Assembly (NCBI GenBank): GCA_964412975.1
Contig: CAYPQX010000110.1
Location: forward strand, 1 to 54,874
Direction: 5' to 3'
From: an uncultured Steroidobacteraceae bacterium
Lineage (GTDB): Bacteria; Pseudomonadota; Gammaproteobacteria; Steroidobacterales; Steroidobacteraceae
DNA: 54,874 nt
Both the position numbers and the translations under genes were made by a program. Shown here piece by piece: positions 20,485 to 42,864 of this stretch (its first letter is position 1; every line of letters begins with the position of its first letter). The notes below the pieces were generated by a model. It worked only from the letters and a program-made list of their open reading frames with translations. It made no database searches and was not told the DNA's origin.

Positions 20485-21183
20485 ATGATGCGCCAGAGGG
20501 TTCGCTCGTTATGCGAGGCCGGCACCGGTGCCGCGATTTTCCTCCTGCTGGCCGGTTGTATGACCGCGCGCCTCGAGGAAGACCGGCAGCTCTCGACCGC
20601 CATTGCCTCGCATGAGGCCGTTGTACTGCTCGCCAAGCCGCATGTCGAAGGCATTACGGCGGAAGACGACTTCATGGATTGCGTCGGCGACAAGATGGCG
20701 AAGGCGACCGGCATCCAGGTGCGCCCGAACGATAACTTCGTCGATTCGATGTTCCCCTGGCTCGAGCCGTCGACGGCACCCCAACGGCCGGAAGGCATCA
20801 CCAAGCTTCTCTCCAGGGATGTAGTCGCGACTCGTGTCGCGGAGAGCGGCGTGCGCTATCTCATCTGGATCGATGGTGCGACGCGCCAGACGGACAGCGG
20901 CGGTAGCATCACCTGTACGCTCGGTCCGGCGGGCGGTGGCTGCATCGGATTTGGCTGGTGGGAAAAGGAATCGGACTACCAGGCGACCGTCTGGGACATC
21001 CAAACCGCGCGGACCGCCGGCTCCATAACGACCAACGTGATCGGAACGTCCGCGCTTGTCGGCGTCGTGGTTCCGCTGCCGTTCATCGCGCGCGTTCAGG
21101 GCACTGCCTGCGACCGACTGGCCAGCCAGCTTGGCATGTTCCTCCGGGGCGACGATCCCTCCGCCATACCTGCTGGGACCTGA
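20485..21183 (+). CDS. Hypothetical lipoprotein
   Basis: ATG 20485 lies 7 nt after AAGGAG. It has the lipobox LLLAGC and no recognisable domain. Confidence 0.65.
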   Translation: MMRQRVRSLCEAGTGAAIFLLLAGCMTARLEEDRQLSTAIASHEAVVLLAKPHVEGITAEDDFMDCVGDKMAKATGIQVRPNDNFVDSMFPWLEPSTAPQRPEGITKLLSRDVVATRVAESGVRYLIWIDGATRQTDSGGSITCTLGPAGGGCIGFGWWEKESDYQATVWDIQTARTAGSITTNVIGTSALVGVVVPLPFIARVQGTACDRLASQLGMFLRGDDPSAIPAGT

Positions 21184-21290: not shown

Positions 21291-22568
21291 ATGAGGATGA
21301 AATCCACTCGTATTCTGCGTGCCATTGCAGTCGCGGCGGCCATCAGCTTGCTGGCCGGCTGCATGACCCAGAGCTCGTCTTCGCGACCGGAATCCGGTGG
21401 CGGTTCGTCGGGCGGTTCGTCGGGCGGTTCGTCCGGTGGTGGCTCGTCCGGCGGAGGTTCATCCGGCGGCGGCAGTTCGTCGGGAGGTGGTTCCTCTGAC
21501 GGCGGCTCGTCCGGCGGCGGCGGCGGCGGCGGATCCGACAGTTCCGGCGGCGGCGGTTCGACATCCGAGTTCCCGACCGAAGGTGACCAGAGCGGCGGCG
21601 AAGCCGCAGCTATTCCGATGCCGGGTGAGGACGGTGGCGCGTCCGGTGGTTCGACGCAGGATGCGAGCGGTGGCTCGACGGGCGGTGCCGAAGGCGCAAG
21701 TGGCGGGGGTTCGCCGGGCCAGGGTCCGGAATCCGGTGCGCAGGGTGGGAATGCTGGCGGCACATCCGAGGCCGGCCAGCCATGCGTCAGCACCGACGAT
21801 GAGACGACGACTAAAGATGGCGACGACATCAATACCACCGTCTGCGTCGACCTCCAGGTCGGCAGCTTGCCGGGCGGCCTCCCGGGTAGCTTGCCAGGCG
21901 GTGTACCGGGCGGCCCGCCGGGAGCACCTGGTGGAAATCCCGGTCAGGCTGGCGGAGAGCCGGGTTTGCCTGGTGTACCGGGTTCGACACAGGGTAGTCC
22001 GGGAGCTGGCGGCGATGTGGCCGGCCAGGCCGGACAACCGGACGGAGCCGGCGGCGCGGCGGGTCAGGGGCCCGGAGCCCCGGGTTCGGGAGGCCGTAGC
22101 GAGCAGATCGGCCGGCGGCTCGACGAAACATTCGGCACCTTCGATGCGGCGGTGCGCACGGCGCAAGCGGATATCGCGAAGGAGCGCTCGGCCGCCGAGG
22201 AAGCGGGGGCCGGTGGCGGTGAACCCGGCGGGGAAGGCGCGGGCGGCGAGGATGGCGAAGGCGCCGACGGCAGCAGCCCGAATCGCCAAGGCGGCCTGGA
22301 ATCGACGGGTGGCGCGGGCGGCGCCGGCGGCGCCGGCGAAACCGGCGCGGGCAGTGCGGACGCGGGCACGCCCGAAAGCGAGCAGGGCGGCGTGGGCGGC
22401 AGCGGCGCGGGCGGCCGCGGTCCGAGCGGGATTCCGGCCGACATTCCCGATGGCCGGGACGACGATATCGTCGCGCGGCAGATTCGCGAGGCGGCCATGA
22501 AGGAGACGGACCCGGAATTGCGCGAAGCGCTCTGGGAGGAATACCGTCGCTACAAGAAGGGGCGCTGA
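21291..22568 (+). CDS. Low-complexity Gly/Ser/Pro-rich lipoprotein with a conserved charged C-terminal helix
   Basis: It has the lipobox SLLAGC (alternative start ATG 21297). About 330 aa are GGSSG/PGG-type repeats, followed by DIPDGRDDDIVARQIREAAMKETDPELREALWEEYRRYKKGR. Confidence 0.75.
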   Translation: MRMKSTRILRAIAVAAAISLLAGCMTQSSSSRPESGGGSSGGSSGGSSGGGSSGGGSSGGGSSSGGGSSDGGSSGGGGGGGSDSSGGGGSTSEFPTEGDQSGGEAAAIPMPGEDGGASGGSTQDASGGSTGGAEGASGGGSPGQGPESGAQGGNAGGTSEAGQPCVSTDDETTTKDGDDINTTVCVDLQVGSLPGGLPGSLPGGVPGGPPGAPGGNPGQAGGEPGLPGVPGSTQGSPGAGGDVAGQAGQPDGAGGAAGQGPGAPGSGGRSEQIGRRLDETFGTFDAAVRTAQADIAKERSAAEEAGAGGGEPGGEGAGGEDGEGADGSSPNRQGGLESTGGAGGAGGAGETGAGSADAGTPESEQGGVGGSGAGGRGPSGIPADIPDGRDDDIVARQIREAAMKETDPELREALWEEYRRYKKGR

Positions 22569-22587: not shown

Positions 22588-23859
22588 ATGAACATGAATC
22601 GAACGGTGGCACTGGGACTGGTCTTCGCGGGCGCGCTCCTCGCGAGCGGCTGCGTCAAGGAGATGCGGCCCCTGCCGATCCTCCAGGCGACCCAGGCGAC
22701 GACCGAAATACCCGCCGAGCAGCTGCTCGACGTCGGCGTGCACATCCTCGATCCCGGCGTGCCGAAGGAGGTCGAGGAAGACCCCGAGCTCATGGATAAG
22801 CGGCGGATCTATCCGGAGATCCGCCAGGCCGAGGCGCGCTACATTGCGATGCAGCTTCGCGACACGCTCGAAGACACCGGCCATTGGGGCACGGCGCGGG
22901 TCGTGCCATCGACGGTGCAGTATTTCGACGTGACGGTCGACGGCCGGATCCTCGAGTCGAATGGCGCCAACCTGAAACTCGAAGTTACGGCGTACGACGC
23001 GATGGGCCGCATCTGGTTCGCCGAGCGCGAGTACGAGGGCCGCGCCGATACGCGCGCCTATAAGGACGGCTACAACAACGGCCGCGACCCGTTCGAGAAC
23101 GTCTACGTCGCGATCGCGAACGATCTCCTGGCGGCACGCGGGACGCGCCCGGCCGCCGAGCTCGCCAACATCCGCAAGGTCAGCGAGATGCGCTTCGCGG
23201 CCGACTTCGCTCCGGTCGCATTCAGCCAGTATCTCGAGAAGAACAAGAGGTCGGGCGAGTACAAAGTGCTCCGCCTGCCGGCCGAGGACGATCTGCTCGT
23301 GCAGCGCATCAACCAGATCCGCGAGCGCGACTACGGGATGATCGACACGGTCAGCGAAAACTACGCGGCCTTCAGCGAGCGGCTCGAAGAGCCTTACACG
23401 AGCTGGCGCCGCTACACCTATGACGAGATCACGGCTGAGGAGAAGCTCAAGGCCCAGGCGCGGAACCGTATGTTGATGGGTGCTGCGGCCGTCGCTGCAG
23501 CCGTGTTCGTGCCTGACAGCTGCAGCAGCAACGACTGCGCGCGCGTCGCGGATGCCGCACGCTACGGCGCGATGGCTGGTGGCGTCGCGGCGGTCATCAG
23601 CGGCTATCGCAAGCGCGAAGAGTCCAAGATCCACACCGAGTCGATCAAGGAAATCTCGAGCTCGTTCCAGAGTGAAGCGGCGCCTCTCGTCGTCGATGTC
23701 GAGGGGCGGACGCTGCGTCTGACCGGCACGGCGGAAGAACAGTACGCGGAGTGGCGCCGGCTCCTGCACGAGCTCTATCGGGAAGAAACCGGCCTGGTGC
23801 CAACCACGCCCGCCGCGGATTCGACGACGCCTGCCGCGCAATCGAGCGGCGCGGGTTGA
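22588..23859 (+). CDS. Hypothetical lipoprotein (423 aa)
   Basis: It has the lipobox LLASGC and starts 20 nt after the preceding gene. A hydrophobic segment lies near residue 300, and no domain is recognisable. Confidence 0.75.
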   Translation: MNMNRTVALGLVFAGALLASGCVKEMRPLPILQATQATTEIPAEQLLDVGVHILDPGVPKEVEEDPELMDKRRIYPEIRQAEARYIAMQLRDTLEDTGHWGTARVVPSTVQYFDVTVDGRILESNGANLKLEVTAYDAMGRIWFAEREYEGRADTRAYKDGYNNGRDPFENVYVAIANDLLAARGTRPAAELANIRKVSEMRFAADFAPVAFSQYLEKNKRSGEYKVLRLPAEDDLLVQRINQIRERDYGMIDTVSENYAAFSERLEEPYTSWRRYTYDEITAEEKLKAQARNRMLMGAAAVAAAVFVPDSCSSNDCARVADAARYGAMAGGVAAVISGYRKREESKIHTESIKEISSSFQSEAAPLVVDVEGRTLRLTGTAEEQYAEWRRLLHELYREETGLVPTTPAADSTTPAAQSSGAG

Positions 23860-23865: not shown

Positions 23866-26124
23866 ATGAAGGATTTGACGCCCGGGCTCGAACTCGGCGC
23901 CCGGTTTGTGCTGGTTCGGCGGATCGGCCGCGGAGGATCGGCGGAGGTCTGGCTCGCGGTTGACCGGGAGCGCGGTGAACACGTCGCGCTCAAGATCCTG
24001 GACGAATCCCTCGCGGGCGACGCCCCCCGCATGGCGAAGCTCGCGGACGAAATCGCGCGCGCGCAGTCCCTGCCGCCGGAGTTCACGGTCGCCGTTCACG
24101 GCATCCACCAGGCGGAAGGCCTCACGTTCGTCGCAATGGAATACCTCGAGACGGGCGACCTCGGCCAGTTGCGCGGCCGATCGTTCGAGAGTTGGGCGCG
24201 GGCGGCCGACGATGTCGCGGCAGGACTCGAGGCCCTCCATGCGCGCGGCCTCGTGCATCGCGACCTGAAATGCGCCAACGTCCTCCTCGATGGCGCGGGC
24301 CGCGCCCGCCTTGCCGATTTCGGGCTCACGGCGCTCGCGGGAAGCCGCGTGCCAGCCGGAGGTTCGCCCTACAACATAAGCCCGCAACAGTTGCGGGGCG
24401 AACCCGCGCAAGCCGCCGACGACCTCTATGCCTACGGCGCGCTCCTCTATGAATTGATCGCCGGGCATCCGCCTTACTACCCGGAGATCACGCAGGACCG
24501 CGTGTTGTACGAACCCGTGCCATCGCTCCTGCCGCGTGGCGTCGTGCCGGTCGGTGTCAGGGAACTTGCGCTGCGCCTGCTCGCGAAGTCGGCAAACGAG
24601 CGCCCGGCGAGCATGACGCAGGTGCGTGCAAAGCTCGCGGCGGCGGCGGCCGACGGGGGCGAGATCGTGCAACCGATCGCCCATGCGCTGCCGGCGGATG
24701 CCGCCCTGCAAGGCGGCCGCCGGCGCCGGTGGTTGCCGCTCGCGTTCGCCGCCGCGGTGATTGCGGCGGTCGCGACCTTCATCTGGCTCCAGCCGAAGCT
24801 TTCGGGCGGCAACTCAGCCTTCGAGCGCGATGCGCGCATTGAGGCCGAGCGGCAGGGGGAGGCAAAGCGCTCGCGCGAAGAGCGCCTGACGGAACAGGCG
24901 GCTACCCGCGCGAAGTCCGAGGCCGCGCGGGACAAGTACGAAACAGCGTTCAAGGCGCTCGACGCGCGCGCGGCCGCGCGCTGGGCCACGGCAGTCTTCG
25001 CAAAGGCCCGCGATGCCGGGGCCGAGGCCGCGCAGCGTTACGCCGTCGGCGAATACGCCGCCGCCGCAGAAGGATGGGAAGCGGGCCTCGCAAGTCTTGC
25101 CGAGCTCGAAAAGAAACTGCCGCAGGCGCTTGCGGATACGATGCGCCGCGGGCAACAGGCGCTCGCGGGTGCGCAGACCGCGGCGGCACGAGAGGCATTC
25201 GGGCTCGCGCTCGCAATCGCGCCGGGACATGCGCAGGCAACCGCCGGCATTGCGCGCGCCGACCGGCTCGACGAGGCATTGGCCGCGGTTGATGCGGCGC
25301 TTGCCGAGGAGCGCGCCGGGCGGCTTGCCGCCGCGGAATCGGGATTCCGCAAGGCGCTCTCGATCGATCGCGCGGTGCCTGGCGCGCAGGAGGCCATCGA
25401 CCGGCTCGCCGCGCGCCGCACCGGCGACGCATTTGCGGCGACCATGTCGCGCGGATTCGCCGATCTCGCCGCCGGGCGGAGCGATGCCGCGCGCGAAAGT
25501 TTTCGCCAGGCGCTTGCGCTTCGCCCCGGTTCGCAGGAGGCGCGCGATGCCATCGCGGCGCTCGAGCAGGGCGAGCGCTCGTCCGCATTGCGGCTCCTGG
25601 AAGCACGCGCGCGGACCGCAGAGGGCGATGAGCGCTGGGACGAGGCGCTCACAGCCTGGCGGGAGGCGGCGGCGCTCGAGCCTTCACTCGAATCGGCGCG
25701 CGAAGGCATTGCGCGCACAGCGCCGCGGGCGGAACTCCAGGGCAGGATCGAGGCTCTGAACAGCAAGCCGGAACGGCTCTGGGATCCCGAAGGTCGCGCC
25801 GAAGCGCGGACTCTTCTTGCGACGGCCGCCGCCACGGGCAATCCGCGCCAGCGCCTCGCCGCGGCCGCAGGCGAGCTCGAACGACTCACCGCTGCCGCGC
25901 AGTCTCCCGTGCGGCTGCGGCTCGAATCCGACGGGCTCACGCAGGTCGTGATCTATCGCGTTGGCCAGTACGGCACTTTTTCGACGCGAGAAGTCGAGTT
26001 GCTGCCGGGGCGCTATACGGTTGTCGGGACGCGAAACGGTTATCGTGACGTCCGGCGCGAAGTCGTGCTGCCGCCGGGCGCCCCGGCCCCGTCGGTCGTC
26101 GTGAGATGCGAGGAACCGATTTGA
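23866..26124 (+). CDS. Hanks-type Ser/Thr protein kinase with one TM helix and a periplasmic TPR/coiled-coil region
   Basis: It has the G-loop [26 protein letters not shown] and ADFG. The TM helix is [20 protein letters not shown]. Ala/Arg-rich TPR-like repeats follow, and it ends in a beta-rich C-terminal domain. Confidence 0.9.
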
Positions 26125-28493
26125 AGGAAGTCTGGCTCGACGATCCGCTCGGCGAACGACGGCTATTGCCGTCCGACCTGCCGCTGACCGTCGGGGGGGC
26201 CGGCGCGGGCGTCGTGATTCCGGGATGCAAACCCGGCGAGATACGCGCGCGCATCGCGCTCTCCGCGCGCGGCCTCGAGGTGACGCCAGGCCCGGGTGCA
26301 GGCGCTGCCGCGCTCGATGGCGTGCAGATTGAACTCGACGACCGCGAGGGCCGGCCGGTGATCGTTGTTCGGCACGGCGGCGTCACGAACCTGACGCGCC
26401 CACCGCAGTTCGAAGGCCAACCCGCTGACGCTGCCGCTGCGCAGGACGACCGGCAGCCGATCGCGATCATCGAGTACGCGCCGCGCGCCGCCCCCAGCCC
26501 GCGATCCACGGCACCGCGGAACTGGACGCGCCCCGCGCTCTGGGCGGCGGTCGCACTCGTGGTGCTCGCGCTCGGCTATCTCTTCACGGCGACTTCCGTC
26601 GAGGTGACGACGAGTCCGGAGGCGGATCTGGACGACGTCGATTTCGCGGGCACGACCCTCGACTTCGGCTTTGCCGGCCGCTACATGGTGCCGCCCGGCC
26701 AGTACGTGCTCGCGGTAGAGGCCGAGGGATATTCCAGGGCGCTGCAGCCGGTCGAGGTGGGTCGCCAGTCCGGTCAGCGTTTCGTGGTCGCGCTCGAGCG
26801 GCTGCCGGGTCGGGTGGCATTCGACACCGGCGGGATTGCCGCGACGCTTGCCGTCGACGGCGCGCCGGTCGGCGCGCTGCCGGGCGAATACGAACTGCGC
26901 GCCGGCACACGCGAACTCGCAATCGTTGCGCCGCGCCACGCCGAGGAGCGGCTTCGCTTCGAGGTCGCGGGTGGCGGAGAGCGCCAGGAATTGAAAGTTA
27001 CCCTGAAACCCCAGTACGCGCGGATCACCGTGACGAGCGTCCCATCCGGCGCAACGGTTTGGGCTGACGACCGCGAGCTCGGGACGACGCCGCTCGAAGC
27101 GGAGCTCGATGCGGGCCGCTACACGCTTGCGATCCTGCATCCGGAATTTCGTCGCTTCGAAAGTCCGCTCACGGTGCGTGCAGGCGAACCGCTCACCGTC
27201 GGTCCGGTGGAGCTCGGCATGCCCGACGGGCGCCTGATCGTGCAGAGCCGGCCGGCGGGTGCGGACGTGAGCATTGGCGGGCGTTATCGTGGCCGTACGC
27301 CGCTCACGGTCGGCGTCGCGCCCGGCATGCCGCAGGATGTGTTGCTGACGCTCGCGGGCCACGCGCCGGTGACCCAGAGCGTGAGCGTTGAAAGTCGCGC
27401 TGAGCGGCGGCTCAGCGTTGACCTGACGCCGGTGCTCGGCGAAGTCCGCGTGAGCGGCGAGCCGGCCGATGCGATCCTCTATGTCGACGGCGCGTCACGC
27501 GGGCCCGCGAACCAGACGCTTTCACTGTCCACGGCACCGCATGTATTCGAGATCCGGAAGGCGGGGCTCGAGCCATTCCGTTCGACCGTCACGCCGCGCG
27601 AAGGACAGACGCAGGTCGTCGAATTCACCCTGCGCACGGCCGGCGAAGCGCGAATTGCCAGCATGCCGGCGACACGCACGACGTCCCTCGGGCAGCCACT
27701 CGTGCTCGTGAACGGCGGCCGGTTCACGATGGGCAGCGCGCGACGCGAAGCGGGACGCCGCTCCAACGAAACCGAACGGATGGTCGAATTGAAGCGGCCT
27801 TTCTACCTGGGACGCTTCCAAGTGACGAACCGCGAGTTCCGGGAGTTCCGGGCCGACCATTTGTCCGGTATCTTCAAGGACGAAACACTGGATCTCGAGC
27901 GCCAGCCGGTGACCCGCGTGACCTGGCAGGATGCCGCGGCGTTCTGCAACTGGCTTTCGGAGCGCGACAAGCTGCCGCCGGCCTATGCGCGCAAGGGCGA
28001 CCGGCTGGAGCTGATCGAGCCGGTGACGACCGGCTACCGATTGCCGACGGAAGCGGAGTGGGAGTTCGCGGCGCGCTTCGATGGAAGCCGCGCGACTCGC
28101 AAGTACCCCTGGGGCAACGACCTGCCGGTGCCGGCGCGCTCCGGCAACTGGGGCGATGCGACGGCGATCTACCTCACGCCGGTGACGATCTCTGGCTATG
28201 ACGACGGCTTCCGCGTCGCGGCGCCGGTCGGCAGTTTTCCGGCCAATCCGCTCGGCATCCACGACCTCGGCGGCAACGTGCTCGAGTGGACGACGGATCG
28301 CTACTCCATCTACGTCGTCGGTCCCGATCATCTTTCGACGGATCCCGCCGGTCCGCGCGCCGGCGAGAATTACGTGATTCGCGGCGCGGGCTGGCTCACC
28401 GGCAAGGTTCCGGAACTGCGCGTCGCCGCGCGTGATTCGGGCGCCTCCGGCCGTCCGGATCTCGGTTTCCGGATCGCGCGTTATGCGGAATAG
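26106..28493 (+). CDS. Membrane protein with a cytoplasmic N-domain, one TM helix, several PEGA repeats and a C-terminal FGE/SUMF1-like (non-catalytic) domain
   Basis: It overlaps the kinase stop by 19 nt. PEGA-like units include [44 protein letters not shown] and [22 protein letters not shown]-like motifs include [41 protein letters not shown] and GFRIAR. The Cys pair of true FGEs is absent. Confidence 0.85.
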
Positions 28494-28497: not shown

Positions 28498-28818
28498 ATG
28501 GACATGAGGCTCCTGATCGGCATCGGCGCTTCATTGCTCGTGCTCGCGGCATTGGCCATCGAGCCGCCGAAGCCTGCGACGCCGCCCGCACGGGCGCCGC
28601 AGAACCGGGAGCCGGTCTCGACGCCGCCTTCCGCGCCGGCATCCGAAGCGCCGTCGCCTGAAGGGGCCGACACGGCCGCGGCGGAGGCGGAAGGCGAAGA
28701 AGAAACGCTGCCTCCGCTGCCGGCCGATGCTGCGCCTTCAGGGCCGCCGCCCGCACGATTCAATCCGACGGAAAAAGTCCGGGCGGACTTTCCCGTCTCG
28801 TTCCCGATCGATATCTGA
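28498..28818 (+). CDS. Small membrane-anchored Pro/Ala-rich protein
   Basis: The ATG lies 2 nt after the upstream stop (alternative ATG 28483). It has the TM helix MRLLIGIGASLLVLAALAI, a PxP-rich segment, and the C-terminal RFNPTEKVRADFPVSFPIDI. Confidence 0.55.
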   Translation: MDMRLLIGIGASLLVLAALAIEPPKPATPPARAPQNREPVSTPPSAPASEAPSPEGADTAAAEAEGEEETLPPLPADAAPSGPPPARFNPTEKVRADFPVSFPIDI

Positions 28819-28831: not shown

Positions 28832-29629
28832 ATGAAGAGCCGATATCCGAAGGAGTTCCTGTACAGCCTGGGCTCGCTGCTGGCCGCCGCAATCGTCATA
28901 CATACGATCTGGACCGCCTGGGTGCGTCCCAATGCGCAGGCCGTCCTGTCCGTCCAGTATGAAGCGATGCAAAAGGATCCAAATTTCGTTTCCGAAAGAT
29001 CGCTGTTCGTGGTCATGAAAGACTGGGAGCAGGAGAGTTGCGTCGTCTTGATGGTCTGGGCGCTCGCGATGATCGCCTTCAAGAACCGCATCACGCGGCG
29101 CGAACAGGACCTTCTGGACGGCGATCCCGTGCGCGTCCCGGAGGGGATGCGCATCCTGCCTGAGGACACGCGCGAGTACGTACGGCAGCTCGAATCGCTG
29201 CCGGGCGAGCAGCAGCAGTCCTTGATCGTGCGCGCTGCCAAGGCGGCGCTCGCGCGCTTCGGCGCGACCCGGAATGTCCAGGACGTCTCGGAGGCGGGTC
29301 ATGCGGTCTGCGCCGCCGAGGCGGAAAGGCTCGATTCGGAGCTGTCGATGCTCCGCTACATCGCCTGGGCGATACCGGCCATCGGCTTCATCGGCACCGT
29401 GCGCGGCATCGGCGACGCGCTCTCGCAGGCCCACAAGGCGGTGACCGGCGACATCTCGGGCGTCACGGAAGGCCTCGGCGTTGCGTTCAATTCGACGCTC
29501 GTCGCGCTGTTGCTTTCGCTCGTTCTGATGTTCCTGCTGCACCAGCTGCAGCTCGCGCAGGAGAGGCTCGTGCTCGACGCCGAAACCTACCTCGACAATC
29601 GCGTGTTGCGGAACCTGCAGGTCCGTTGA
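28832..29629 (+). CDS. MotA/TolQ/ExbB-family proton-channel protein
   Basis: It is trimmed to ATG 28832. It has an N-terminal TM helix, a cytoplasmic segment, and then the family signature AIPAIGFIGTVRGIGDALS...GVTEGLGVAFNSTLVALLLSLVLMF. Confidence 0.82.
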   Translation: MKSRYPKEFLYSLGSLLAAAIVIHTIWTAWVRPNAQAVLSVQYEAMQKDPNFVSERSLFVVMKDWEQESCVVLMVWALAMIAFKNRITRREQDLLDGDPVRVPEGMRILPEDTREYVRQLESLPGEQQQSLIVRAAKAALARFGATRNVQDVSEAGHAVCAAEAERLDSELSMLRYIAWAIPAIGFIGTVRGIGDALSQAHKAVTGDISGVTEGLGVAFNSTLVALLLSLVLMFLLHQLQLAQERLVLDAETYLDNRVLRNLQVR

Positions 29630-29630: not shown

Positions 29631-30971
29631 ATGCCGTCGATCGGCATCGAAGTCGTCGATGCGGCCGTTACGGTTGTGCGGGACGGCGCACGCCTCGCGT
29701 CGAGCCCCGGCATCGCGCTCCTCGAGCCGGCAGGCGTAGTGGTCGGCGAGGCGGCAGCGGCTGCCGCGCGACTGCAGCCGGTGCTCGCAAGCGACCGGTT
29801 CTGGTCGGATCTCGCCCAGGAATCGCTGGCCGGGCCGCCGGATCGTGTGATGTCGCACGCGGATCTCGCTTACGCGCACCTGGCGGAACTCTGGCGCGCG
29901 ACCGCGCGCGAGGGTGATGCGGCAGCCTTCGCCGTGCCCGGCTCGATGCGCGTGCAGCAGGTCGGCCTGCTGCTTGGGATTGCGCGCGCCGCCGGCATCC
30001 CGGTGGCGGGCGCCGTGGATTCCGCCGTCGCCGCCTGTGCGGGACTCGCGGCGCGTGCGTCGGTGCTGCATCTCGACGTGCAATTGCACCAGACGGTGCT
30101 GACGGAATTGCAGGGCGCGACCGTGCTGCGCCGCCGCCGCGTGGAGTTCGCGCCGCGCGCGGGACTCAAGCCGATGTATTCCGCCTGGGCGCAGCTGGTG
30201 AGCGAAGCGATGGTGCGACGCACGCGCTTCGATCCGCTGCATCAGGCCGCGAGCGAGCAGCAGCTTTACCAGCGCTTGCCGGCCTGGCTCGGCGAGCTGG
30301 CGGGCCGGGACTCGCTCGACGTCGCGATCGAAACCGAAGCGGGATCGTTCGGCGCGACCCTCCGGCGTGAGCAGTTCACGCTGGCGGCGGAGGCCTGGTA
30401 CGCGCAGATCTCGGAGCTCGTGCGCGGCGGCCGTCGCGCCGACGAGTCGGCGACGCTCGTCATTTCGGCGCGCGCCGCGTCGCTGCCCGCGCTCGGCGAG
30501 CGCCTCGCGTCGCTGCCTGGACTCGAATTGCAGTCCCTGCCGGATACCGCGGCTGCGGCCTCGGCAGCCGCCCGCGCGGACGAGATCGGCCCCGGTGAAC
30601 CGCCCGCGCTCGTGACTGCACTCGCGCGGAGTCATCCGGTTGAAGGAGGCGACCGCCGCCGCGAAGTTGCGGCATCGGCGACCCACATCGTCCATGAAGG
30701 CCGGGCGTATGCGATCGACGACCGGCCGCTCGTGATCGGCCTGGGGCCGGGCGACGGACGGCGCATCGCGCTTGGAGGCGCGGGCGACGGCATCTCGCGC
30801 GCGCACTGCACGCTCATGCGTCGCGCGGGCCGCGCGGTCATCCGCGACCATAGCCGTTACGGGACCTTCGTGAATGGCGAGCGCGTGGAAGGCGAATCGG
30901 GCCTCGGCCCAGGCGACCGGCTCCGCGTCGGCACGCCGGGTGTCGTGTTCGAACTGGTGGCGGTCGGCTGA
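29631..30971 (+). CDS. Cytoplasmic protein with a C-terminal FHA domain and an unassigned ~330-aa N-terminal domain
   Basis: The FHA domain is RPLVIGLGPGDGRRIALGGAGDGISRAHCTLMRRAGRAVIRDHSRYGTFVNGERVEGESGLGPGDRLRVG. It starts 1 nt after the ExbB-like stop and overlaps the next gene start by 1 nt. Confidence 0.85.
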   Translation: MPSIGIEVVDAAVTVVRDGARLASSPGIALLEPAGVVVGEAAAAAARLQPVLASDRFWSDLAQESLAGPPDRVMSHADLAYAHLAELWRATAREGDAAAFAVPGSMRVQQVGLLLGIARAAGIPVAGAVDSAVAACAGLAARASVLHLDVQLHQTVLTELQGATVLRRRRVEFAPRAGLKPMYSAWAQLVSEAMVRRTRFDPLHQAASEQQLYQRLPAWLGELAGRDSLDVAIETEAGSFGATLRREQFTLAAEAWYAQISELVRGGRRADESATLVISARAASLPALGERLASLPGLELQSLPDTAAAASAAARADEIGPGEPPALVTALARSHPVEGGDRRREVAASATHIVHEGRAYAIDDRPLVIGLGPGDGRRIALGGAGDGISRAHCTLMRRAGRAVIRDHSRYGTFVNGERVEGESGLGPGDRLRVGTPGVVFELVAVG

Positions 30972-32053
30972 TGGCGCGGCGCAAGACACTCACGTACAGC
31001 ATGTCCTTCCTGGACGTGATCTCCTGCGGCTTCGGCGCGGTCGTGCTGTTCTACACGATCATCAGCGCGCAGGCCGGCCTGTACCGGATCAAGGAAAGCT
31101 CGGATCTTTCCGCGGAATCCCGCCGGCTCGAGCAGGAGGTGCTCGACGGATACAAGCACCTCGCGGAATTGCGCAATGCCCTCGAATCCACGGAAGACCG
31201 GACCGTCCGGGCCGCGGGCCTGTCGCGAGAGATGCTGGAAAAACTCCGCATGACGGAGGAGGAACTCGCGCGATACGAGCACGATACCCTTGCGCGCCGC
31301 GAAAGCCTTGAACGCCTGAAAGCCGACCTCAAGTCGCTCGAGGAAAGCACGCGGCGGCTGAAGGAAGCCGCGCCGCCGGAGTCCGGCGAGTCCAGGGTGC
31401 CGATCATCGACAAGCAGCAGCTAGTGACGCTTCGAATCGATGGCAGGCGCGTGCTGGTGCTGGTCGATTCGTCTGCCAGCATGCTCGACGAGACGCTCGT
31501 CAACATCATTCGCCTGCGTAACATGGCACCGGAGCGACGCATCGCTTCGAGCAAGTGGCGGCAGGCGGTCAACACGGTCGAGTGGGTCGCTTCGCGCCTG
31601 CCGGATACGACGCAATTCCAGATCTACGCCTTCGATACCGCGGCGCGCCCGTTGGTCGAAGGGAGCGCGGGCCGCTGGCTCAGCGTGAAGGACGCGGGGC
31701 AGATTGAGCTCGCATTGCAGGCCCTGCGCAGGACGGCGCCCACGGGCGGCTCGAGCCTGCAAAACGCCTTTGCCGTCATTAAGACCCTGAATCCTGCGCC
31801 GGACAATGTGATCCTGGTGACCGACGGGCTGCCGACGCAGGGCGCCAAGCCACCGCTCATGCGCACGCTCGTGACGATGGAACAGCGCGAGGACCTGATG
31901 CAGGACGCGATCAAGTCGCTGCCGCCATCGCCGCCCCCGTTCAGCACGGTTTTGCTGCCGATGGAGGGCGATCCTTCCGCGCCCATCTACTTCTGGCGCC
32001 TGGCCCGCTCCACTGGCGGCGGCTTCCTGAGCCCGGCGAAGGACTGGCCGTGA
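30971..32053 (+). CDS. TM (ExbD/TolR-like Asp helix) - coiled coil - vWA domain protein, paralog 1
   Basis: The N-terminus is MARRKTLTYSMSFLDVISCGFGAVVLF. A heptad-rich segment follows, then vWA MIDAS LVLVDSSASM and ...ILVTDGLPTQG. Confidence 0.85.
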   Translation: MARRKTLTYSMSFLDVISCGFGAVVLFYTIISAQAGLYRIKESSDLSAESRRLEQEVLDGYKHLAELRNALESTEDRTVRAAGLSREMLEKLRMTEEELARYEHDTLARRESLERLKADLKSLEESTRRLKEAAPPESGESRVPIIDKQQLVTLRIDGRRVLVLVDSSASMLDETLVNIIRLRNMAPERRIASSKWRQAVNTVEWVASRLPDTTQFQIYAFDTAARPLVEGSAGRWLSVKDAGQIELALQALRRTAPTGGSSLQNAFAVIKTLNPAPDNVILVTDGLPTQGAKPPLMRTLVTMEQREDLMQDAIKSLPPSPPPFSTVLLPMEGDPSAPIYFWRLARSTGGGFLSPAKDWP

Positions 32054-33069
32054 AACGCCGCACGCGACGCGATACCGAGACCTTCAGCATGTCGTTCCTC
32101 GACTGCATCTGCTGCGGATTCGGCGCGATCATCCTGTTGCTGGTACTGAACGAGGTCGGCCAGCCGATCCAGCTCGAGCAGGCCAAAGTAGACCTCGACG
32201 CACAGATCGTGAAGATGGAGAAGGAGATTTTCGATATTCGCGGGATGTCGATCGTGCTCGAGCGGGAACTGCGCGCGCGGATCGAGCAGTTGTCGGAAGA
32301 ACAGAAGCGTGTCGCCAGGCTGCGTGGCGACTTGTCCGAGATTTCCGGCAAGCACAAGGCAGGCACCGACGAGGAAGACGCGCTCAAGAAGCTCACGGAA
32401 ACGCTCACGAGCGCTCGCCGTGCGCTGATCGACGAGACACGGGAATTGCAGGCGAGCGGCCGCCAACAGATGTACAACCAGCCGGTCGCGGGCGTCCCGA
32501 TCGACAGCGAATACGTCATCTTCATCGTCGACACCTCGGGCTCCATGCAGTCGCAGAACTGGCGCTACGCGGAGCAGAAGCTCGGTGAGGTGCTGAACAT
32601 CTACCCGAAGCTCAAGGGAATCCAGGTGATGGATGACGAGGGCGGGTACATGTTCAGCGAATACCGCGGCAAGTGGATCCCGGACTCGCCGGCGCGGCGT
32701 CGGGCGATCCTGGACCGCTTCCGCAAGTGGCAGGCATTCTCGAATTCGAGTCCGTCCGAAGGGATCATCGCGGCGATCCGCACGTTCTGGACTCGCGACC
32801 ATCCGATCAGCATTTACGTGTTCGGCGACGAGTTCACCGGGCCGTCGATCCAGGAAGTCGTCGACACCGTCGACCGGATCAACCGCTCGGCCGGTACGGG
32901 CGAGCGCCTCGTCCGCATTCATTCGCTCGGGTTTCCGATTCCGGCCCAGTACCCGCAGCACACGAGCATGCGTTACGCGACGCTCATGCGCATACTGTCG
33001 GCGCGAAACGGCGGCGTGTTCGTCGGCCTTCCCGAAGGCAATAGTACCGCCTTGCGACGGAGCAATTGA
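32050..33069 (+). CDS. TM (ExbD/TolR-like Asp helix) - coiled coil - vWA domain protein, paralog 2
   Basis: The GTG start overlaps the previous stop (GTGA). The N-terminus is MKRRTRRDTETFSMSFLDCICCGFGAIILL. A coiled coil follows, then MIDAS IFIVDTSGSM. Confidence 0.85.
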   Translation: MKRRTRRDTETFSMSFLDCICCGFGAIILLLVLNEVGQPIQLEQAKVDLDAQIVKMEKEIFDIRGMSIVLERELRARIEQLSEEQKRVARLRGDLSEISGKHKAGTDEEDALKKLTETLTSARRALIDETRELQASGRQQMYNQPVAGVPIDSEYVIFIVDTSGSMQSQNWRYAEQKLGEVLNIYPKLKGIQVMDDEGGYMFSEYRGKWIPDSPARRRAILDRFRKWQAFSNSSPSEGIIAAIRTFWTRDHPISIYVFGDEFTGPSIQEVVDTVDRINRSAGTGERLVRIHSLGFPIPAQYPQHTSMRYATLMRILSARNGGVFVGLPEGNSTALRRSN

Positions 33070-33842
33070 TGAGACAAGCGAACATCCGCACGGCGGTCGC
33101 CGCCCTTTTTATCGCGCTGTTTTCGGGCTGCACGGCGACCCGCCTCACCACGGAGGCGCAGCTGCCGCCGCCGCTGATCGAGAAGCTGCCGATACGCGTT
33201 GGCGTCTACTACTCGAAGGAGTTCCAGGAGTACGTGCACCGCGAAACCCGCGGCAACATCGAGTACGAGATCGGCCTCGGGGCCGCGCACGTGACGAACA
33301 TCGACTGGCTGATGAAGGCGATGTTCACCGACGTGGTGCCGGTTGAGGACCCGACGAAGATCGCCGATAGCAATCCGCCGTTCGTCTTCGTACTCGAGCC
33401 GAAATTCGAGGAGTACTCTTTCCTGACGCCGAAGGACGTGGCCGGCGAAGCCTTCATCGTGACGATCCGCTATATGCTGACGCTCTACGACGGCGACGGC
33501 GCTCGCGTGGATTCTTTCACGCTCACCGGGTATGGGCGCGAGAAGGCGCGCACGCTCGCGAGCAAGGAACCACTTCAGGTCGCGACGCAGCGGGCGATGC
33601 GGGATGCGGGAGCCAAGGTCGCCGTCGAGTTGACCGAGCAGGAATCCGTGCGGCTCCTGATCCGCAATGCGGGCAGTTTTTCGCCGCTACCGCCTCCACC
33701 CCTGTATCCGCCGGCGGGCGAAGCGCCACCGGTTGAGGCGCCACCCGGCGCAGCACCGACGCTGGAACAGATGCCGGTGGGGGAACTTCCCGCCGAGGCG
33801 CCGCCTGAACCGGAGGCGCCGCCCTCAACTACCGGGGTCTGA
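33069..33842 (+). CDS. Hypothetical lipoprotein with a Pro-rich C-terminal tail
   Basis: ATG 33069 (or TTG 33066) overlaps the upstream stop. It has the lipobox ALFSGC and the tail PLPPPPLYPPAGEAPPVEAPPGAAP. Confidence 0.75.
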   Translation: MRQANIRTAVAALFIALFSGCTATRLTTEAQLPPPLIEKLPIRVGVYYSKEFQEYVHRETRGNIEYEIGLGAAHVTNIDWLMKAMFTDVVPVEDPTKIADSNPPFVFVLEPKFEEYSFLTPKDVAGEAFIVTIRYMLTLYDGDGARVDSFTLTGYGREKARTLASKEPLQVATQRAMRDAGAKVAVELTEQESVRLLIRNAGSFSPLPPPPLYPPAGEAPPVEAPPGAAPTLEQMPVGELPAEAPPEPEAPPSTTGV

Positions 33843-35441
33843 CTTCGCGGCCGGGGTCGGTGTCGCGGCCGGCGCCGGGTTGTGTTCCTCGTACCATTCG
33901 CCGGTGAAGGTGACGCCTTCGGTTGCGACCGCCTTGCCGTTGGCAAAGCGCGGGCTGTAGATCGCCTTGGACAATGAGCGCATCGACTGCGACAGCTGGC
34001 CTTCCGACATGTTGGTCGAGACGACCGAGACGTTCTGCGGCACCCCGGTTTCCGAGACGAAAAAGCTGAAGACGGTCTTGCGAATGATGTACTGGCCGGT
34101 CAGCGTGTTGAGGCCGCGGGCCGCGGAGACCGGCGGGCGATAGAACACCATCCGCGGCACCATGAGCGGATTGCCGGCCAGCGGATCAAAGGAGTTTCGC
34201 GTCTCGAGGATCGTGGCAGCTTCCTTATAGAAGGGAATCGCAAAGTTCGGCCGCGACGTCGTTTGGTACCAGTCGCCGAGTTCGATCAGCGTTTCGGTCA
34301 TGAGATCCTGCGGCGGATCCGACGTCGCGCGCAAGAGCTCGAGCGCCGTCTGCACGGACTTGAGGCCGGTGCGGTCAGCCGCCGGCGGCGGCACGCGCGA
34401 CTCGCGATAGACCTTGCCGACGATCTCGCCCGTGATCTCGTCGCGCGCCGGCTGCTGGCTTTCGAGCGTGTCCGGATCCATCGTGTACTGCAGACGGTGG
34501 GTGCGGGCGACTCCGACGAGCGCCTTGATCGCAAGCGGATTGAATCCGCCGCTCTCCCTGAAGGCGGCATCGCGCGCGCGCAGGTACATCATCCGCGCCG
34601 CGATGAATTCCCGGAGCGACTCATAGAAGGTCGCGAGTTGCAGCAGTGCCGGGAGCGTGCGCTCGTCGCCGTAACCGTAATTCTGTTCGGCGATCTTGAG
34701 CGCGTACATGTACTGTTTCTCGACGCCGCCAAAATCATTGATGGCGTACCGGCTGTCCGCGGCCTGTTCGATCAGTGGCAACTGCGCCAGGTTGAACAGG
34801 CCCTCGGAGCGGCGGCTGACCGCGAGCGCGCGATCGAAGAGCCCGGCGGCGAGCGCGTGCTGGTCCTGCGCCGCGTACACGGCGCCGAGACCGGCAAGCG
34901 GGACGATGAGGCGCCGGGACGAAATGCCCTGGGTCGCCTCGAGCAGTTCGAGCGATTTCTGGTAGCTTCCTGCCGCGGCCGGGTAATTGGAGAGCTGATA
35001 CTGCGTCGCGCCCAGGTTGTTATACGCAATCGGCAATTCGTAATCGCGTTCGGGGTCGGCTTCCGACAACTCGACGACGCGCCGCGCATAAGGCAAGGCT
35101 TCTTCGAAGTGCGCGGTTTCGTAGAGACCGCGGAACTGATCGTAGGCCTCCATGCGCGGATCCTGCGCAAGGATACGCAGCTGCTGGCGGGGCGCCGCCG
35201 GCTTCACATGTGCCTCGATCACGTCCGCGGTCGGCATCGTCACCGGGGTTCCAGCGGGCTCGCCGGTTGCAGGCCCTGCCGATCTGTCTGCGCCGGAAGC
35301 CGGCGGGTTCGCTGGTAGCGATTCGGCGGCGCCGGTTTCCACTGGCGGCGGCGCAGGGGTCACCGCGACCTCGGCCTCGGCCGAGGCAGCCGCGAGCAAC
35401 AGGAAGGCGAGCACCGGGGTCATGCTGTGACGATAGACCAT
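33825..35441 (-). CDS. Periplasmic TPR-repeat protein with a C-terminal TonB_C-like domain
   Basis: It has the signal peptide MTPVLAFLLLAAASAEA (start ATG 35441 or 35423) and TPR-like repeats (YNNLGATQYQLSNYPAAAGSYQKSLELL). The C-terminus VFSFFVSETGVPQNVSVVSTN...AIYSPRFANGKAV resembles the TonB C-terminal fold. It is convergent with the upstream block and overlaps it by 18 nt. Confidence 0.75.
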   Translation of the reverse strand: MVYRHSMTPVLAFLLLAAASAEAEVAVTPAPPPVETGAAESLPANPPASGADRSAGPATGEPAGTPVTMPTADVIEAHVKPAAPRQQLRILAQDPRMEAYDQFRGLYETAHFEEALPYARRVVELSEADPERDYELPIAYNNLGATQYQLSNYPAAAGSYQKSLELLEATQGISSRRLIVPLAGLGAVYAAQDQHALAAGLFDRALAVSRRSEGLFNLAQLPLIEQAADSRYAINDFGGVEKQYMYALKIAEQNYGYGDERTLPALLQLATFYESLREFIAARMMYLRARDAAFRESGGFNPLAIKALVGVARTHRLQYTMDPDTLESQQPARDEITGEIVGKVYRESRVPPPAADRTGLKSVQTALELLRATSDPPQDLMTETLIELGDWYQTTSRPNFAIPFYKEAATILETRNSFDPLAGNPLMVPRMVFYRPPVSAARGLNTLTGQYIIRKTVFSFFVSETGVPQNVSVVSTNMSEGQLSQSMRSLSKAIYSPRFANGKAVATEGVTFTGEWYEEHNPAPAATPTPAAKSDPGS

Positions 35442-35481
35442 ACGCCGTCGGGCGTGTTCCCTGCGGGCCAGGGCCGGCCAT

Positions 35482-36639
35482 TCATTTGCCCCTGGCATCG
35501 CGTTCGAAAACCGCTATCAGGCCGCCCGCGCAGACAGCGAGCAGGGGATCGGTGATTTCAGCCGTCTGGCCCGGCAGCCAGGTCTGCAGGAACTCGATCG
35601 AAAACACAGCCCCGGCGCCGAGTCCAGCCGCCGCGAAGACCGGCAAGCCGAACTGAACAAGGAGCCAGACCAGGGCGCCATTCATGAAGCAGCGAAGGAA
35701 CATGTCCGTCAGGTTGGTTGCGCGATACTGGGTCAGCGACTCACCGAAGGGCAGCAGCGCGAACCGGTCCTGTGAGAGCTGGAAGTCGAAGGGGGCGAGA
35801 CCTTCGATCGCGATCAGTAGCAGGAGCGCGACGGCGAGTACGAACGCAACCCGCGGAACCGGCAGCCGCGCGAGCGGACGCGCAAGTGCGAGCGCCGCGG
35901 CCATGCCCGTGACTTCGGCGGGCTCGAGTGCGATTCCGGCGAACAGCACGCGACCTGCGAGCACGAAGCCCATGGCGATCGCGACGATCGCAATAGGCCG
36001 GCCAGGAGCGAGCCGACCGCAGATCAAGACGAGCACGAGCCAGGCGACGAGGTGCGGTAGCACCGCGGCAGTCTGGAGCCAGCCGCCGCCGGCTAGCGGG
36101 TTGAACGCGGAGGCCCACTTGTCGGGTTCCAGAACCGGCGCAAATGGCGCCAGCCGGTAGCCGATCCATGAGAGAAGCAGCACGGCCGCTACTGGATGGC
36201 TGAGCACGCCCGCGAACGGCGACGAATCCAGCCGGTTGCGTGTGCGCGCAATCGCAAGCGCAAAGCAGGCGCCCGCGAACGCGCCGATGGTGTTACACGA
36301 GAAATCGGCGAGGCTCGTGACGCGCCGCGTTTCGTAAAGCTGGGCGAACTCGATGGCGAAGGACAATGCGGCGGCCGCGATGGTTGCCGTGGCGACTGCG
36401 AACGGGCCGCTGGCGCGCGCGGACAGGAGCCAGGCGAGGCAGGCGCCGAGCGGCAGATAGAGCAGCACATTGGCCGCGACGTCGCTTCGAGTCGTGCCCG
36501 CGAAAGTGAGCCCGCGCAGGAGATCGACCGGACTCGAGCCGACCGCGGCGAAGCTGAAGGGATAAAGCGAGCCGAAGACGATGAGGAACAGGATGACGGC
36601 GAGGAGCGAGGCTGCAATCCTGAGATCCTGCGCCGCCAC
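35482..36639 (-). CDS. VanZ-like polytopic membrane protein
   Basis: It has a GTG start. The N-terminal segment LYPFSF...NVLLYLPLG...FAIEFAQLY...SLADFSCNTIGA is typical of the VanZ domain, and additional TM helices follow. Confidence 0.7.
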   Translation of the reverse strand: MAAQDLRIAASLLAVILFLIVFGSLYPFSFAAVGSSPVDLLRGLTFAGTTRSDVAANVLLYLPLGACLAWLLSARASGPFAVATATIAAAALSFAIEFAQLYETRRVTSLADFSCNTIGAFAGACFALAIARTRNRLDSSPFAGVLSHPVAAVLLLSWIGYRLAPFAPVLEPDKWASAFNPLAGGGWLQTAAVLPHLVAWLVLVLICGRLAPGRPIAIVAIAMGFVLAGRVLFAGIALEPAEVTGMAAALALARPLARLPVPRVAFVLAVALLLLIAIEGLAPFDFQLSQDRFALLPFGESLTQYRATNLTDMFLRCFMNGALVWLLVQFGLPVFAAAGLGAGAVFSIEFLQTWLPGQTAEITDPLLAVCAGGLIAVFERDARGK

Positions 36640-38530: not shown

Positions 38531-41482
<2,952 letters not shown>

Positions 41483-41501
41483 AGCCTGTTCGTTGATCCA
41501 G

Positions 41502-41534
41502 AGGCCGGTCCCCCGCGGGACCGGCCTTCTTTAT
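41502..41534 (+). terminator. Rho-independent terminator after the receptor gene
   Basis: AGGCCGGTCCC-ccgc-GGGACCGGCCT is a perfect 11-bp stem, followed by TCTTTAT. Confidence 0.75.
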
Positions 41535-41663
41535 GCCAGGAATCGGGCAGTCTTCGGGTCGAATTGCGCCGTTTGTCATATTTTTGCGCCCCGCGTCACG
41601 CTCGCTGACCGCGCAGTTTGTCACTGTCTCCCGAATCATCCGCAGGCCCCGGATCGCATCGCA

Positions 41664-42860
41664 TTGTCCAGATATCGCAAAATTCCAGTCGCTGAACTCG
41701 AGATCGGCATGTACGTATCCGAGCTCGATCGCCCGTGGCTCGAGACTCCGTTTCTGTTCCAGGGCTTCTACGTCCGGAGCGAGGATGAGGTTGCGGCGGT
41801 GCGGAGCCACTGCCAGCAGATTGTCATCGACACGCGCGTCGACGACGAGCCGCCGAAGGCGGCGACGCCCACGGCGCGCCCCGCGCGTCCGCCTGAGGAA
41901 GCGATGCGGGAGCTGAAGGACGAGATCAAGCAGGCCACCGGCATCCACGTTGCCGTCTATGCCTCCATCGAGGACGTGATGGGCGAGCTGAAGAGCTCGG
42001 GCAAGCTGAATGTCCACAAGCTCGAAGCCGCGGTGCTGCCGATGGTGGACAGCGTGCTGCGCAATCCCGCCGCGATGTCCTGCCTGATGCGCATCCGCCG
42101 CAAGGGCGGTTATCTCTATTCGCATTCGCTCGCCTCGTCGGTGTGGGCGACCGCGCTTGGCCGCGAGATCGGCCTCGACCGGGATGCGCTGCGGGTCGTT
42201 GCACTGGGCGCGATGCTGCTCGACGTCGGAAAGATCCGGATCCCCGGCAAGATCCTCGACAAGCCCGGCAAGCTCGATGCCGCCGAGATTGCGCTGGTGC
42301 GCCGGCACGTCGAATTCGGCCTGGACCTCGTGAGGGAGGCGGGCGACGTGGACCCGCGCGTGCTCGACATGGTCGCGCACCATCACGAGCGCCACAACGG
42401 CCTAGGCTACCCAAAGGCCCTCAAGGGCAGCGAGATTCCCGTTTACGGCCGTATCGCGGGCATCGTCGACACATACGACGCGATGATCACGTCGCGGCCT
42501 TATGCGAGCACGCAATCGTCCTATGGCGCGCTCCGCCAGCTCCGCGCGCTCGCCGGAACCGAATTCCAGTCAGAAGTCGTCGACCAGTTCACGCAGGCGA
42601 TCGGCATGTTCCCGACCGGGACGCTGGTACTTCTCAACACCGGAGAGGTGGCGGTCGTGACCGCGCAGAGCCGCATCCGCAGGCTCCGCCCGGAAGTCAT
42701 GATCATCCTCGATGCAGACAAGCAGCCGCTCGCGGATTATCGCGTCGTCGATCTCAACCAGGTCTCGGCGACCGCCGACGACCAGGCCTCGCTCTGGATC
42801 GAATCGGGGCTCGAACCCGGCGCCTATGACGTCGATCCCGCGGAGTACTACCTCAATTGA
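41664..42860 (+). CDS. HD-GYP domain c-di-GMP phosphodiesterase with an N-terminal DUF3391-like domain
   Basis: I chose the TTG start at 41664 because the family begins ...RKIPVAELEIGMYVSELDRPW. The upstream part of the track ORF covers the terminator. It has the HD motif LLDVGK...HHERHNGLGYP. Confidence 0.82.
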   Translation: MSRYRKIPVAELEIGMYVSELDRPWLETPFLFQGFYVRSEDEVAAVRSHCQQIVIDTRVDDEPPKAATPTARPARPPEEAMRELKDEIKQATGIHVAVYASIEDVMGELKSSGKLNVHKLEAAVLPMVDSVLRNPAAMSCLMRIRRKGGYLYSHSLASSVWATALGREIGLDRDALRVVALGAMLLDVGKIRIPGKILDKPGKLDAAEIALVRRHVEFGLDLVREAGDVDPRVLDMVAHHHERHNGLGYPKALKGSEIPVYGRIAGIVDTYDAMITSRPYASTQSSYGALRQLRALAGTEFQSEVVDQFTQAIGMFPTGTLVLLNTGEVAVVTAQSRIRRLRPEVMIILDADKQPLADYRVVDLNQVSATADDQASLWIESGLEPGAYDVDPAEYYLN

Positions 42861-42864
42861 CGCC

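Follow-up and report, generated by a model that had tools for sequence, protein, structure and literature searches.

Can proteins that end in a vWA (von Willebrand factor type A) domain take the place of the inner subunits of a proton-driven motor? Proton-driven motors of 5:2 stoichiometry power flagella, TonB-dependent import, the Tol-Pal system, gliding and Zorya defence, and each newly recognised inner subunit is another route by which the energy of the inner membrane reaches the envelope. The question is raised by two adjacent genes, here called vWA1 and vWA2, in a 54,874-nucleotide stretch of DNA from an uncultured Steroidobacteraceae bacterium (contig CAYPQX010000110.1 of assembly GCA_964412975.1), which we refer to as the window. 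An initial annotation had proposed that both products carry an ExbD/TolR-like transmembrane (TM) helix with a conserved Asp, and that they might be stator B-subunits with a vWA domain as periplasmic effector. The observation is confirmed and the interpretation is supported by the analysis described here. We consider it rather probable that vWA1 and vWA2 pair up as the inner (B-type) heterodimer of a 5:2 motor driven by protons, with the product of a nearby MotA/ExbB/TolQ-family gene (the MotA-like protein) as the outer pentamer.

The two open reading frames (ORFs), together with the N-termini quoted for them, are exactly as first annotated, and their products are paralogous. BLASTP aligns vWA1 with vWA2 over the N-terminal 170 residues (E = 1e-13), and a profile-profile comparison of the two ortholog families with hhalign covers the full length of the proteins (317 columns, probability 99.9%, E = 3.9e-36). 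Separate vWA1 and vWA2 orthologs are present in four distant clusters, one from Halieaceae, one from verrucomicrobial Puniceicoccaceae and two from other contigs. Since each paralog has its own ortholog in distant taxa, the duplication is an ancient one, and heterology is built into the pair. The overlap of the vWA1 stop with the vWA2 start indicates that the two genes belong to one operon.

Each protein begins with a basic stub and contains a single hydrophobic segment, spanning residues 13-31 in vWA1 and 15-33 in vWA2 by hydropathy. The long helix and vWA domain that had been read downstream of this segment were recovered in an AlphaFold2 single-chain prediction of vWA1 based on an 89-sequence alignment. 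In this model, a continuous helix (residues 13-133) is followed by a disordered linker (134-159) and by a vWA fold (160-360) with a predicted local distance difference test score (pLDDT) near 90. When the last 200 residues of vWA1 were submitted to Foldseek, many solved vWA domains were matched, including 4fx5, the anthrax toxin receptor, CLCA1, ITIH1 and BatB (3ibs). vWA2 scores below threshold against Pfam VWA_2, and we assign it the vWA fold because of the comparison between the vWA1 and vWA2 family profiles. The metal-ion-dependent adhesion site (MIDAS), made up of a DxSxS motif and of Thr/Ser and Asp ligands farther along a Rossmann-like fold, is intact in both proteins, as originally noted (DSSAS and DTSGS). 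In vWA1 it consists of D166-S-S168-A-S170 with S262 and D285, which are invariant or nearly so in the family, and in vWA2 of D161-T-S163-G-S165 with S233 and D260, which are invariant in the family alignment. The distance from the TM Asp to the MIDAS is conserved in length. For vWA1-type proteins it generally amounts to 150-157 residues and for vWA2-type proteins to 136-145, which fits a paired stalk of defined length.

The Asp is residue 15 of vWA1 (codon 31013-31015) and residue 18 of vWA2 (codon 32101-32103) and occupies the third or fourth position of the hydrophobic segment. A HMMER search of a sequence library clustered at 50% identity returned 1243 related clusters at E≤1e-3, 251 of them at E≤1e-30. 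From these, 107 near-full-length representatives were aligned with both window proteins. All 99 of the vWA1-type homologs that have an intact N-terminus, at 27-52% identity to the query, carry D in this column. The helix as a whole is strikingly fixed, with the consensus [RK]2-3 - x5 - F-S-[LM]-S-F-L-D-[VCI]-[MI]-x-C-G-F-G-A-V-x-L-L-F, and its columns contain neither an SHLS motif nor a conserved His in the aligned homologs. Asp18 is likewise invariant in nine of nine vWA2 orthologs (alignment A5) and is present in each of 71 vWA2 helices from metagenome loci. The pattern used to scan the metagenomes itself included the Asp, and for this reason the vWA1 Asp of the metagenome set is not counted as evidence of conservation. 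Thus, the Asp that the initial annotation had called conserved is invariant among the diverse orthologs examined of both paralogs.

Charge is distributed unevenly around the helix. The mean net charge is +2.75 on the N-terminal flank and -1.09 on the C-terminal flank, and the N-terminal flank is the more positive in 91 of the 99 sequences. By the positive-inside rule, this asymmetry places the N-terminus in the cytoplasm and both the coiled coil and the vWA domain in the periplasm. The sequences therefore indicate an N-in, vWA-out topology, with the Asp lying near the cytoplasmic end of the predicted helix, in agreement with the orientation initially assumed for both proteins.

The MotA-like protein, the presumed partner, aligns with solved TolQ and MotA chains from the Protein Data Bank (PDB) through its last two TM helices (TM3-TM4), and it keeps both TolQ pore threonines (IGTVRGI and FNSTLVAL), as do five distant MotA-like orthologs. 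It was said at first that each vWA gene follows a MotA/ExbB-family gene. One such gene does lie upstream in the operon, but the statement is untrue as worded, because the 55-kb window contains only one MotA/ExbB-family ORF and a gene for a 446-residue protein separates it from vWA1. Searches of the window and of 756 kb of related loci turned up no ExbD/TolR/MotB gene, and this family is absent from the precomputed Pfam lists of all six distant contigs that bear a MotA-like gene. The full-length vWA proteins are themselves unmatched by the Pfam ExbD model (PF02472).

The association between the vWA pair and MotA/ExbB-family genes extends well beyond the window. A contig scan with one query sequence, rather than a profile, returned only close relatives, namely 37 Steroidobacteraceae loci (L numbers denote individual loci and contigs). 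Synteny comparison reveals the same cluster in all 37, with the MotA-like gene missing in one subclade. Seven more distant contigs have enough upstream sequence to be informative, and two others (L039 and L045) end at the contig edge and are uninformative. Six of the seven show the linkage of a MotA-like gene to the vWA pair: L038 (Chromatocurvus halotolerans), L040 (Puniceicoccaceae K14), L041, L042, L044 and L046. The gene order in these six is PEGA/FGE-sulfatase, a small ORF (in most), MotA_ExbB, usually a 420-512-residue protein, vWA and vWA. Eighty metagenome loci were also annotated with custom hidden Markov models, and those with at least 2.6 kb (38 loci) or at least 5.2 kb (22 loci) of upstream sequence were taken as informative. 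A MotA-like gene is present at 33 of the 38 and a gene for an Hsp70-like protein, the counterpart of the 446-residue protein, at 36 of the 38, while a PEGA/FGE-sulfatase gene is found at 21 of the 22. A vWA2-type gene lies downstream of vWA1 at 72 of all 80 loci. Members of the vWA family are widely distributed among Gammaproteobacteria of soil and sea and among Verrucomicrobia. Since cultured Halieaceae also carry them, with Chromatocurvus halotolerans, Parahaliea mediterranea and Pseudohaliea rubra as examples of cultured carriers, the system is experimentally tractable.

Systems of this kind have been described before. A recent paper (PMC12204202, Mol Biol Evol June 2025, section 8) reports TM-tethered vWA pairs that adjoin tolQ-like genes, have a conserved TM Asp and lack SHLS. 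Most of these proteins come in heterologous pairs, and Proteobacteria and Verrucomicrobia are their main hosts. In AlphaFold3 5:2 models their helices are enclosed by the TolQ-like pentamer, and a ring of threonines surrounds the two Asp residues (PMC12204202, section 8, Fig. 4c,d). The window proteins share with this family the tandem arrangement of a heterologous TM-tethered vWA pair, the tolQ-like neighbour, the absence of tolR/exbD, the TM Asp without SHLS or His, the Thr ring in the TolQ-like partner and the distribution over Proteobacteria and Verrucomicrobia. Because every described feature that we checked is present, the window vWA genes are, on sequence criteria, new members of this predicted kind, an assignment made from the described features. 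The seed proteins used in that paper come from Idiomarina loihiensis, and no Idiomarina member is among the named matches to the vWA proteins, two cluster look-ups for taxon names included. The central motor idea is therefore already published as a prediction, and the vWA-bearing stator subunit, which the initial annotation had viewed as an unusual architecture, is supported as a reading but had already been reported. What goes beyond the published description is the conserved extended cluster, its putative kinase/FHA control and the existence of MotA-less variants. The text of PMC12204202 mentions neither PEGA, FGE-sulfatase, the Hsp70-like protein, the lipoproteins, the kinase/FHA overlay nor MotA-less variants, and our literature search found no experimental study of these vWA/TolQ-like systems.

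In the motor that we favour, the helices of both vWA proteins would be seated inside the MotA-like pentamer, where Asp15 and Asp18 would be protonated and deprotonated against the Thr ring and thereby drive relative rotation. A paired helical stalk of ∼100 residues (about 15 nm) would carry the two MIDAS-bearing vWA heads across the periplasm. There, the heads might engage a partner in the periplasm or outer membrane by way of an acidic residue coordinated to the metal; the best candidates are the cluster's own PEGA/FGE-sulfatase protein or one of its lipoproteins. In this way, proton-motive force would be coupled to mechanical work in the envelope. On the cytoplasmic side, the 446-residue protein, which resembles the nucleotide-binding domain (NBD) of Hsp70, is a candidate partner of the pentamer. 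The membrane Ser/Thr kinase encoded in the cluster probably gates assembly or activity in this lineage, because the Hsp70-like protein carries an FHA domain and the FGE protein a cytoplasmic extension. If the proposal is true, a heteromeric inner dimer ending in two metal-dependent adhesion (vWA) heads would constitute a mechanically distinct output module.

It is also conceivable, although we would put this wider claim somewhat below an even chance, that the vWA pair and the MotA-like channel are the core of an undescribed multi-component trans-envelope machine that is under eukaryote-like Ser/Thr-kinase/FHA control in some lineages and perhaps runs without a dedicated MotA gene in some. The proposed conserved parts of such a machine are the bitopic PEGA/FGE protein, the small secreted protein, the cytoplasmic Hsp70-NBD-like protein, three or four lipoproteins and a TPR protein. 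Its layout would be analogous to that of GldKLMN or Agl-Glt while being evolutionarily separate. The conserved partners, the kinase/FHA overlay and the MotA-less variants provide concrete handles for finding the role of this putative machine.

Several observations weigh against a motor with the vWA pair as its inner component. The MotA-like gene is missing at 5 of the 38 informative metagenome loci (∼13%). Clean absences are seen in a Steroidobacteraceae subclade (L023, L024, L026, L027, L053 and L054) and at L103, L118, L078 and L043; contigs CAVVDL010000018, DATBSX010000132, DATJFN010000023 and JANNHT010000135 belong to MotA-less metagenome-assembled genomes. At L023 (8320-8665), the stop of the small ORF is followed within 10 nucleotides by the start of the Hsp70-like gene, such that the MotA-like gene is precisely absent, and at L043 neither a MotA-like nor an FGE gene is found within 8 kb. 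MotA-less loci whose helices were read nonetheless keep the SFLD...CGFG motif unchanged. Perhaps the gene for their partner lies in another part of the genome, or perhaps the helix has a task that does not involve MotA. In addition, linkage to the PEGA/FGE-sulfatase gene is at least as tight as that to the MotA-like gene (21/22 versus 33/38), and in most clusters a gene intervenes between the MotA-like gene and the vWA pair.

Evidence from the helix itself also counts against the motor. A profile of 42 TM-helix sequences matches no ExbD, TolR, MotB or ZorB chain in the PDB, and the corresponding 42 N-terminal segments do not match the ExbD family in Pfam at E≤10. In hhalign comparisons with ExbD and TolR of E. 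coli, the Asp-on-Asp register was chosen at insignificant values (E = 0.16-0.18). Thus, as far as these comparisons reach, the resemblance to ExbD/TolR is at motif level only. The local likeness noticed at first stands, but a significant profile match does not accompany it. Because homology of the helix is statistically undemonstrable, we claim neither that homology nor membership of the ExbD/TolR/MotB family. The vWA proteins plausibly work like ExbD/TolR while standing outside that family.

The most serious competing explanation sees in the vWA pair a scaffold or adhesin module, anchored in the membrane, of a periplasmic complex that centres on the PEGA/FGE protein and the lipoproteins. Its Asp-bearing helix would then serve for helix-helix association with the bitopic FGE protein or with the kinase/TPR protein, and the MotA-like protein would be an accessory. 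The linkage figures, the persistence of the helix at MotA-less loci and its lack of significant similarity to ExbD, TolR or MotB all speak for this explanation, as do small-xxx-small features (C-G-F-G-A) that suit a packing helix. We nevertheless judge it unlikely. Subunits of the MotB/ExbD/TolR type are marked out by a single-pass helix whose cytoplasmic end holds an invariant, buried Asp. The pore threonines of the MotA-like protein are intact in a cluster that offers no other candidate inner subunit, and the published AlphaFold3 models put the helices inside the pentamer (PMC12204202). A different division of labour, in which the vWA proteins act as force transducers of the TonB/TolA type at the periphery of an ExbB-ExbD or TolQ-TolR motor whose genes lie elsewhere, has a precedent in another vWA family of the same paper. 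That family, for which a TonB/TolA-like role was proposed, combines a TM helix bearing SHLS/His with a linker that is proline-rich or disordered, and its genes adjoin tolQ and a pair of tolR-like genes (PMC12204202). The window proteins are alike in their TM-stalk-globular head layout, and at MotA-less loci the pair stands without a dedicated motor gene nearby. We reject this identity because the SHLS motif and conserved His are absent and the stalk is helical, not proline-rich; moreover, no tolR/exbD-like pair is adjacent and a charged Asp would be unexpected on a lipid-facing peripheral helix. The explanation is accordingly highly improbable.

We give marginally less credence still to the idea that the cluster defends against phage by means of a MotA-like channel, as a system either like Zorya or of the conflict type (MoxR-vWA or kinase-based). 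Zorya systems have a ZorA with a long tail, a ZorB with a peptidoglycan-binding domain, and ZorC/ZorD or ZorE as effectors. The MotA-like protein does give weak matches to PADLOC ZorA models (E = 7e-5 and 3e-3), confined to its MotA-like core, and the kinase matches defence-kinase models. These kinase matches reflect generic Pkinase similarity, and most orthologous clusters lack the kinase domain. ZorB, ZorC, ZorD and ZorE are unmatched in PADLOC, neither vWA protein matches any PADLOC model, and no MoxR AAA+ gene was detected. Synteny across the Steroidobacteraceae loci is stable and chromosomal with housekeeping flanks, and is not island-like. The MoxR-vWA ternary and GTPase-Hsp70 conflict systems (PMC7159879) were also considered as identities and set aside, the cluster having neither a MoxR nor a GTPase gene.

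Comparison with characterised assemblies helps to define the putative vWA-based motor. Like ExbD, TolR and MotB, the vWA proteins have a single N-in TM helix with an Asp near the cytoplasmic face, share the local motif x-F-[IL]-D-V-[ML] and are encoded in an operon with a MotA/ExbB/TolQ-family gene. Unlike those subunits, they are two distinct paralogs and not a homodimer, have no detectable homology and carry a ∼100-residue helical stalk with a vWA/MIDAS head. This head replaces the ExbD/TolR periplasmic fold or an OmpA-like peptidoglycan-binding domain. With GldK-GldL-GldM-GldN (PorKLMN), which form the core of the machinery for type IX secretion and gliding, the cluster shares the gene order of FGE-sulfatase-fold protein, motor pentamer and periplasm-spanning dimer, and the coupling of an ion-driven 5:2 motor to a long periplasmic dimer, which we regard as analogy only. 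The window FGE protein matches GldK/PorK and GldJ models at domain level, with 97 bits for GldK against a cutoff of 350. It is, however, a bitopic inner-membrane protein with PEGA repeats instead of an outer-membrane lipoprotein, the presumed motor belongs to the MotA/TolQ family with an Asp/Thr pair and is not GldL/GldM, and no GldN homolog was detected. BatA and BatB also have a TM-anchored vWA domain with a MIDAS, and BatB was among the Foldseek matches to vWA1. Bat operons, in contrast, centre on a MoxR AAA+ ATPase and have no MotA-like gene, conserved TM Asp motif or long coiled-coil stalk. A MoxR-vWA/Bat identity is rejected because the MoxR gene is absent.

Table. Genes of the vWA cluster in the window and the parts of the two vWA proteins; positions are those of the window unless given as residues.
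Feature	Position	Strand	Description
Three lipoproteins, upstream	20458-21183, 21291-22568, 22588-23859	+	each with L-[AS]-G-C lipobox
Ser/Thr protein kinase	23866..26124	+	752 residues; TM 290-308; periplasmic TPR-containing region
PEGA/FGE-sulfatase protein	26106..28493	+	795 residues, bitopic; ∼140-residue cytoplasmic N-terminal extension, TM 144-162, periplasmic PEGA repeats, then FGE-sulfatase
Small signal-peptide protein	28498..28818	+	Pro/Ala-rich; C-terminal RFNPTEKVRADFPVSFPIDI motif; start codon uncertain
MotA/ExbB/TolQ-family (MotA-like) protein	28832..29629	+	265 residues; Pfam MotA_ExbB E = 2.3e-14; presumed pentameric proton channel
Hsp70-NBD-like/FHA protein	29631..30971	+	446 residues, cytoplasmic; 1-330 Hsp70/DnaK NBD-like (actin fold), 350-446 FHA
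vWA1	30971..32053	+	360 residues; ATG start
vWA1 parts	residues 1-360		basic stub 1-9; TM helix 10-31; long helix to 133; linker 134-159; vWA domain 160-360
vWA2	32050..33069	+	339 residues; GTG start overlapping vWA1 stop (GTGA)
vWA2 parts			TM helix ∼13-34; helical stalk; divergent vWA domain
Lipoprotein, downstream	33066..33842	+	lipobox LFSGC; likely start ATG at 33069; directly downstream of vWA2

The kinase, PEGA/FGE, small-protein, MotA-like, 446-residue, vWA1, vWA2 and downstream lipoprotein genes all point the same way and follow one another with stops and starts that overlap or abut. Among the neighbours of the vWA pair, the PEGA/FGE-sulfatase protein shows the tightest linkage. Pfam searches at lenient thresholds gave no match for its cytoplasmic extension, the Hsp70-like domain, the lipoproteins or the small protein. 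The extension looks FHA-like by eye, an identity that we do not claim given the Pfam result. The structural model of the Hsp70-NBD-like protein has a pLDDT of 86 and yields Foldseek E values of about 1e-14 to 4e-16. Residues E7 and D10 are invariant in its close homologs, and its N-terminal phosphate-binding motif reads IGIEVVDAAV, in place of the DnaK motif IGIDLGTTNS. The protein may therefore be a non-catalytic actin-fold scaffold. The RFNPTEKVRADFPVSFPIDI motif of the small protein is common to the window and L023, and small ORFs of 93, 88, 69 and 49 residues occupy the same position between the FGE and MotA-like genes in distant clusters.

Orthologs of the kinase in several other clusters keep the TPR part and lack the kinase domain; those of L038 and L041 consist of TM and TPR only. 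The kinase domain, the FHA domain of the Hsp70-like protein (30680-30971) and the cytoplasmic extension of the FGE protein (26106-26540) occur together in the window and in L042, and all three are missing from L038, L040, L041 and L044. Their joint presence and absence suggests a regulatory overlay. At the L042 locus, a gene for a 1313-residue protein (13023-16964) lies directly downstream of the vWA cluster and encodes kinase, Laminin_G_3 and FGE-sulfatase domains with a weak C-type lectin match, a second kinase/FGE link at that locus.

A homolog of the downstream lipoprotein follows vWA2 in L038 (phmmer), and in L040 and L042 unmatched genes of similar size (about 229 residues) stand in this position. 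Synteny of the three upstream lipoprotein genes extends throughout the Steroidobacteraceae, and the Chromatocurvus (L038) and L041 clusters contain homologs of them. A radical-SAM gene (19363-20433, + strand) directly precedes this lipoprotein end of the cluster. In L044, a radical-SAM gene that has Mob_synth_C and looks MoaA-like (669-1679) takes the same position, which may be coincidental. At the other end of the cluster, a convergent gene (33825-35498, - strand) encodes a 557-residue signal-peptide TPR protein (TPR_12, E = 2.4e-22). A homolog of this protein opens the Chromatocurvus cluster (L038 113-1363, E = 6e-16), and the window protein may be one more part of the system.

Farther downstream, the window encodes an unusual fusion of a receptor with a peptidoglycan anchor (38531-41482, + strand). 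This 983-residue protein joins a TonB-dependent receptor (Plug and beta-barrel) to a C-terminal OmpA peptidoglycan-binding domain (Pfam OmpA, E = 6.6e-22), with a long poly-proline linker and a thrombospondin-type Asp-rich repeat between the two parts. Just downstream (41493-44163, + strand) are genes for an HD-GYP-type protein (DUF3391 and HD_5) and then a GGDEF-EAL protein, which are genes of cyclic-di-GMP turnover.

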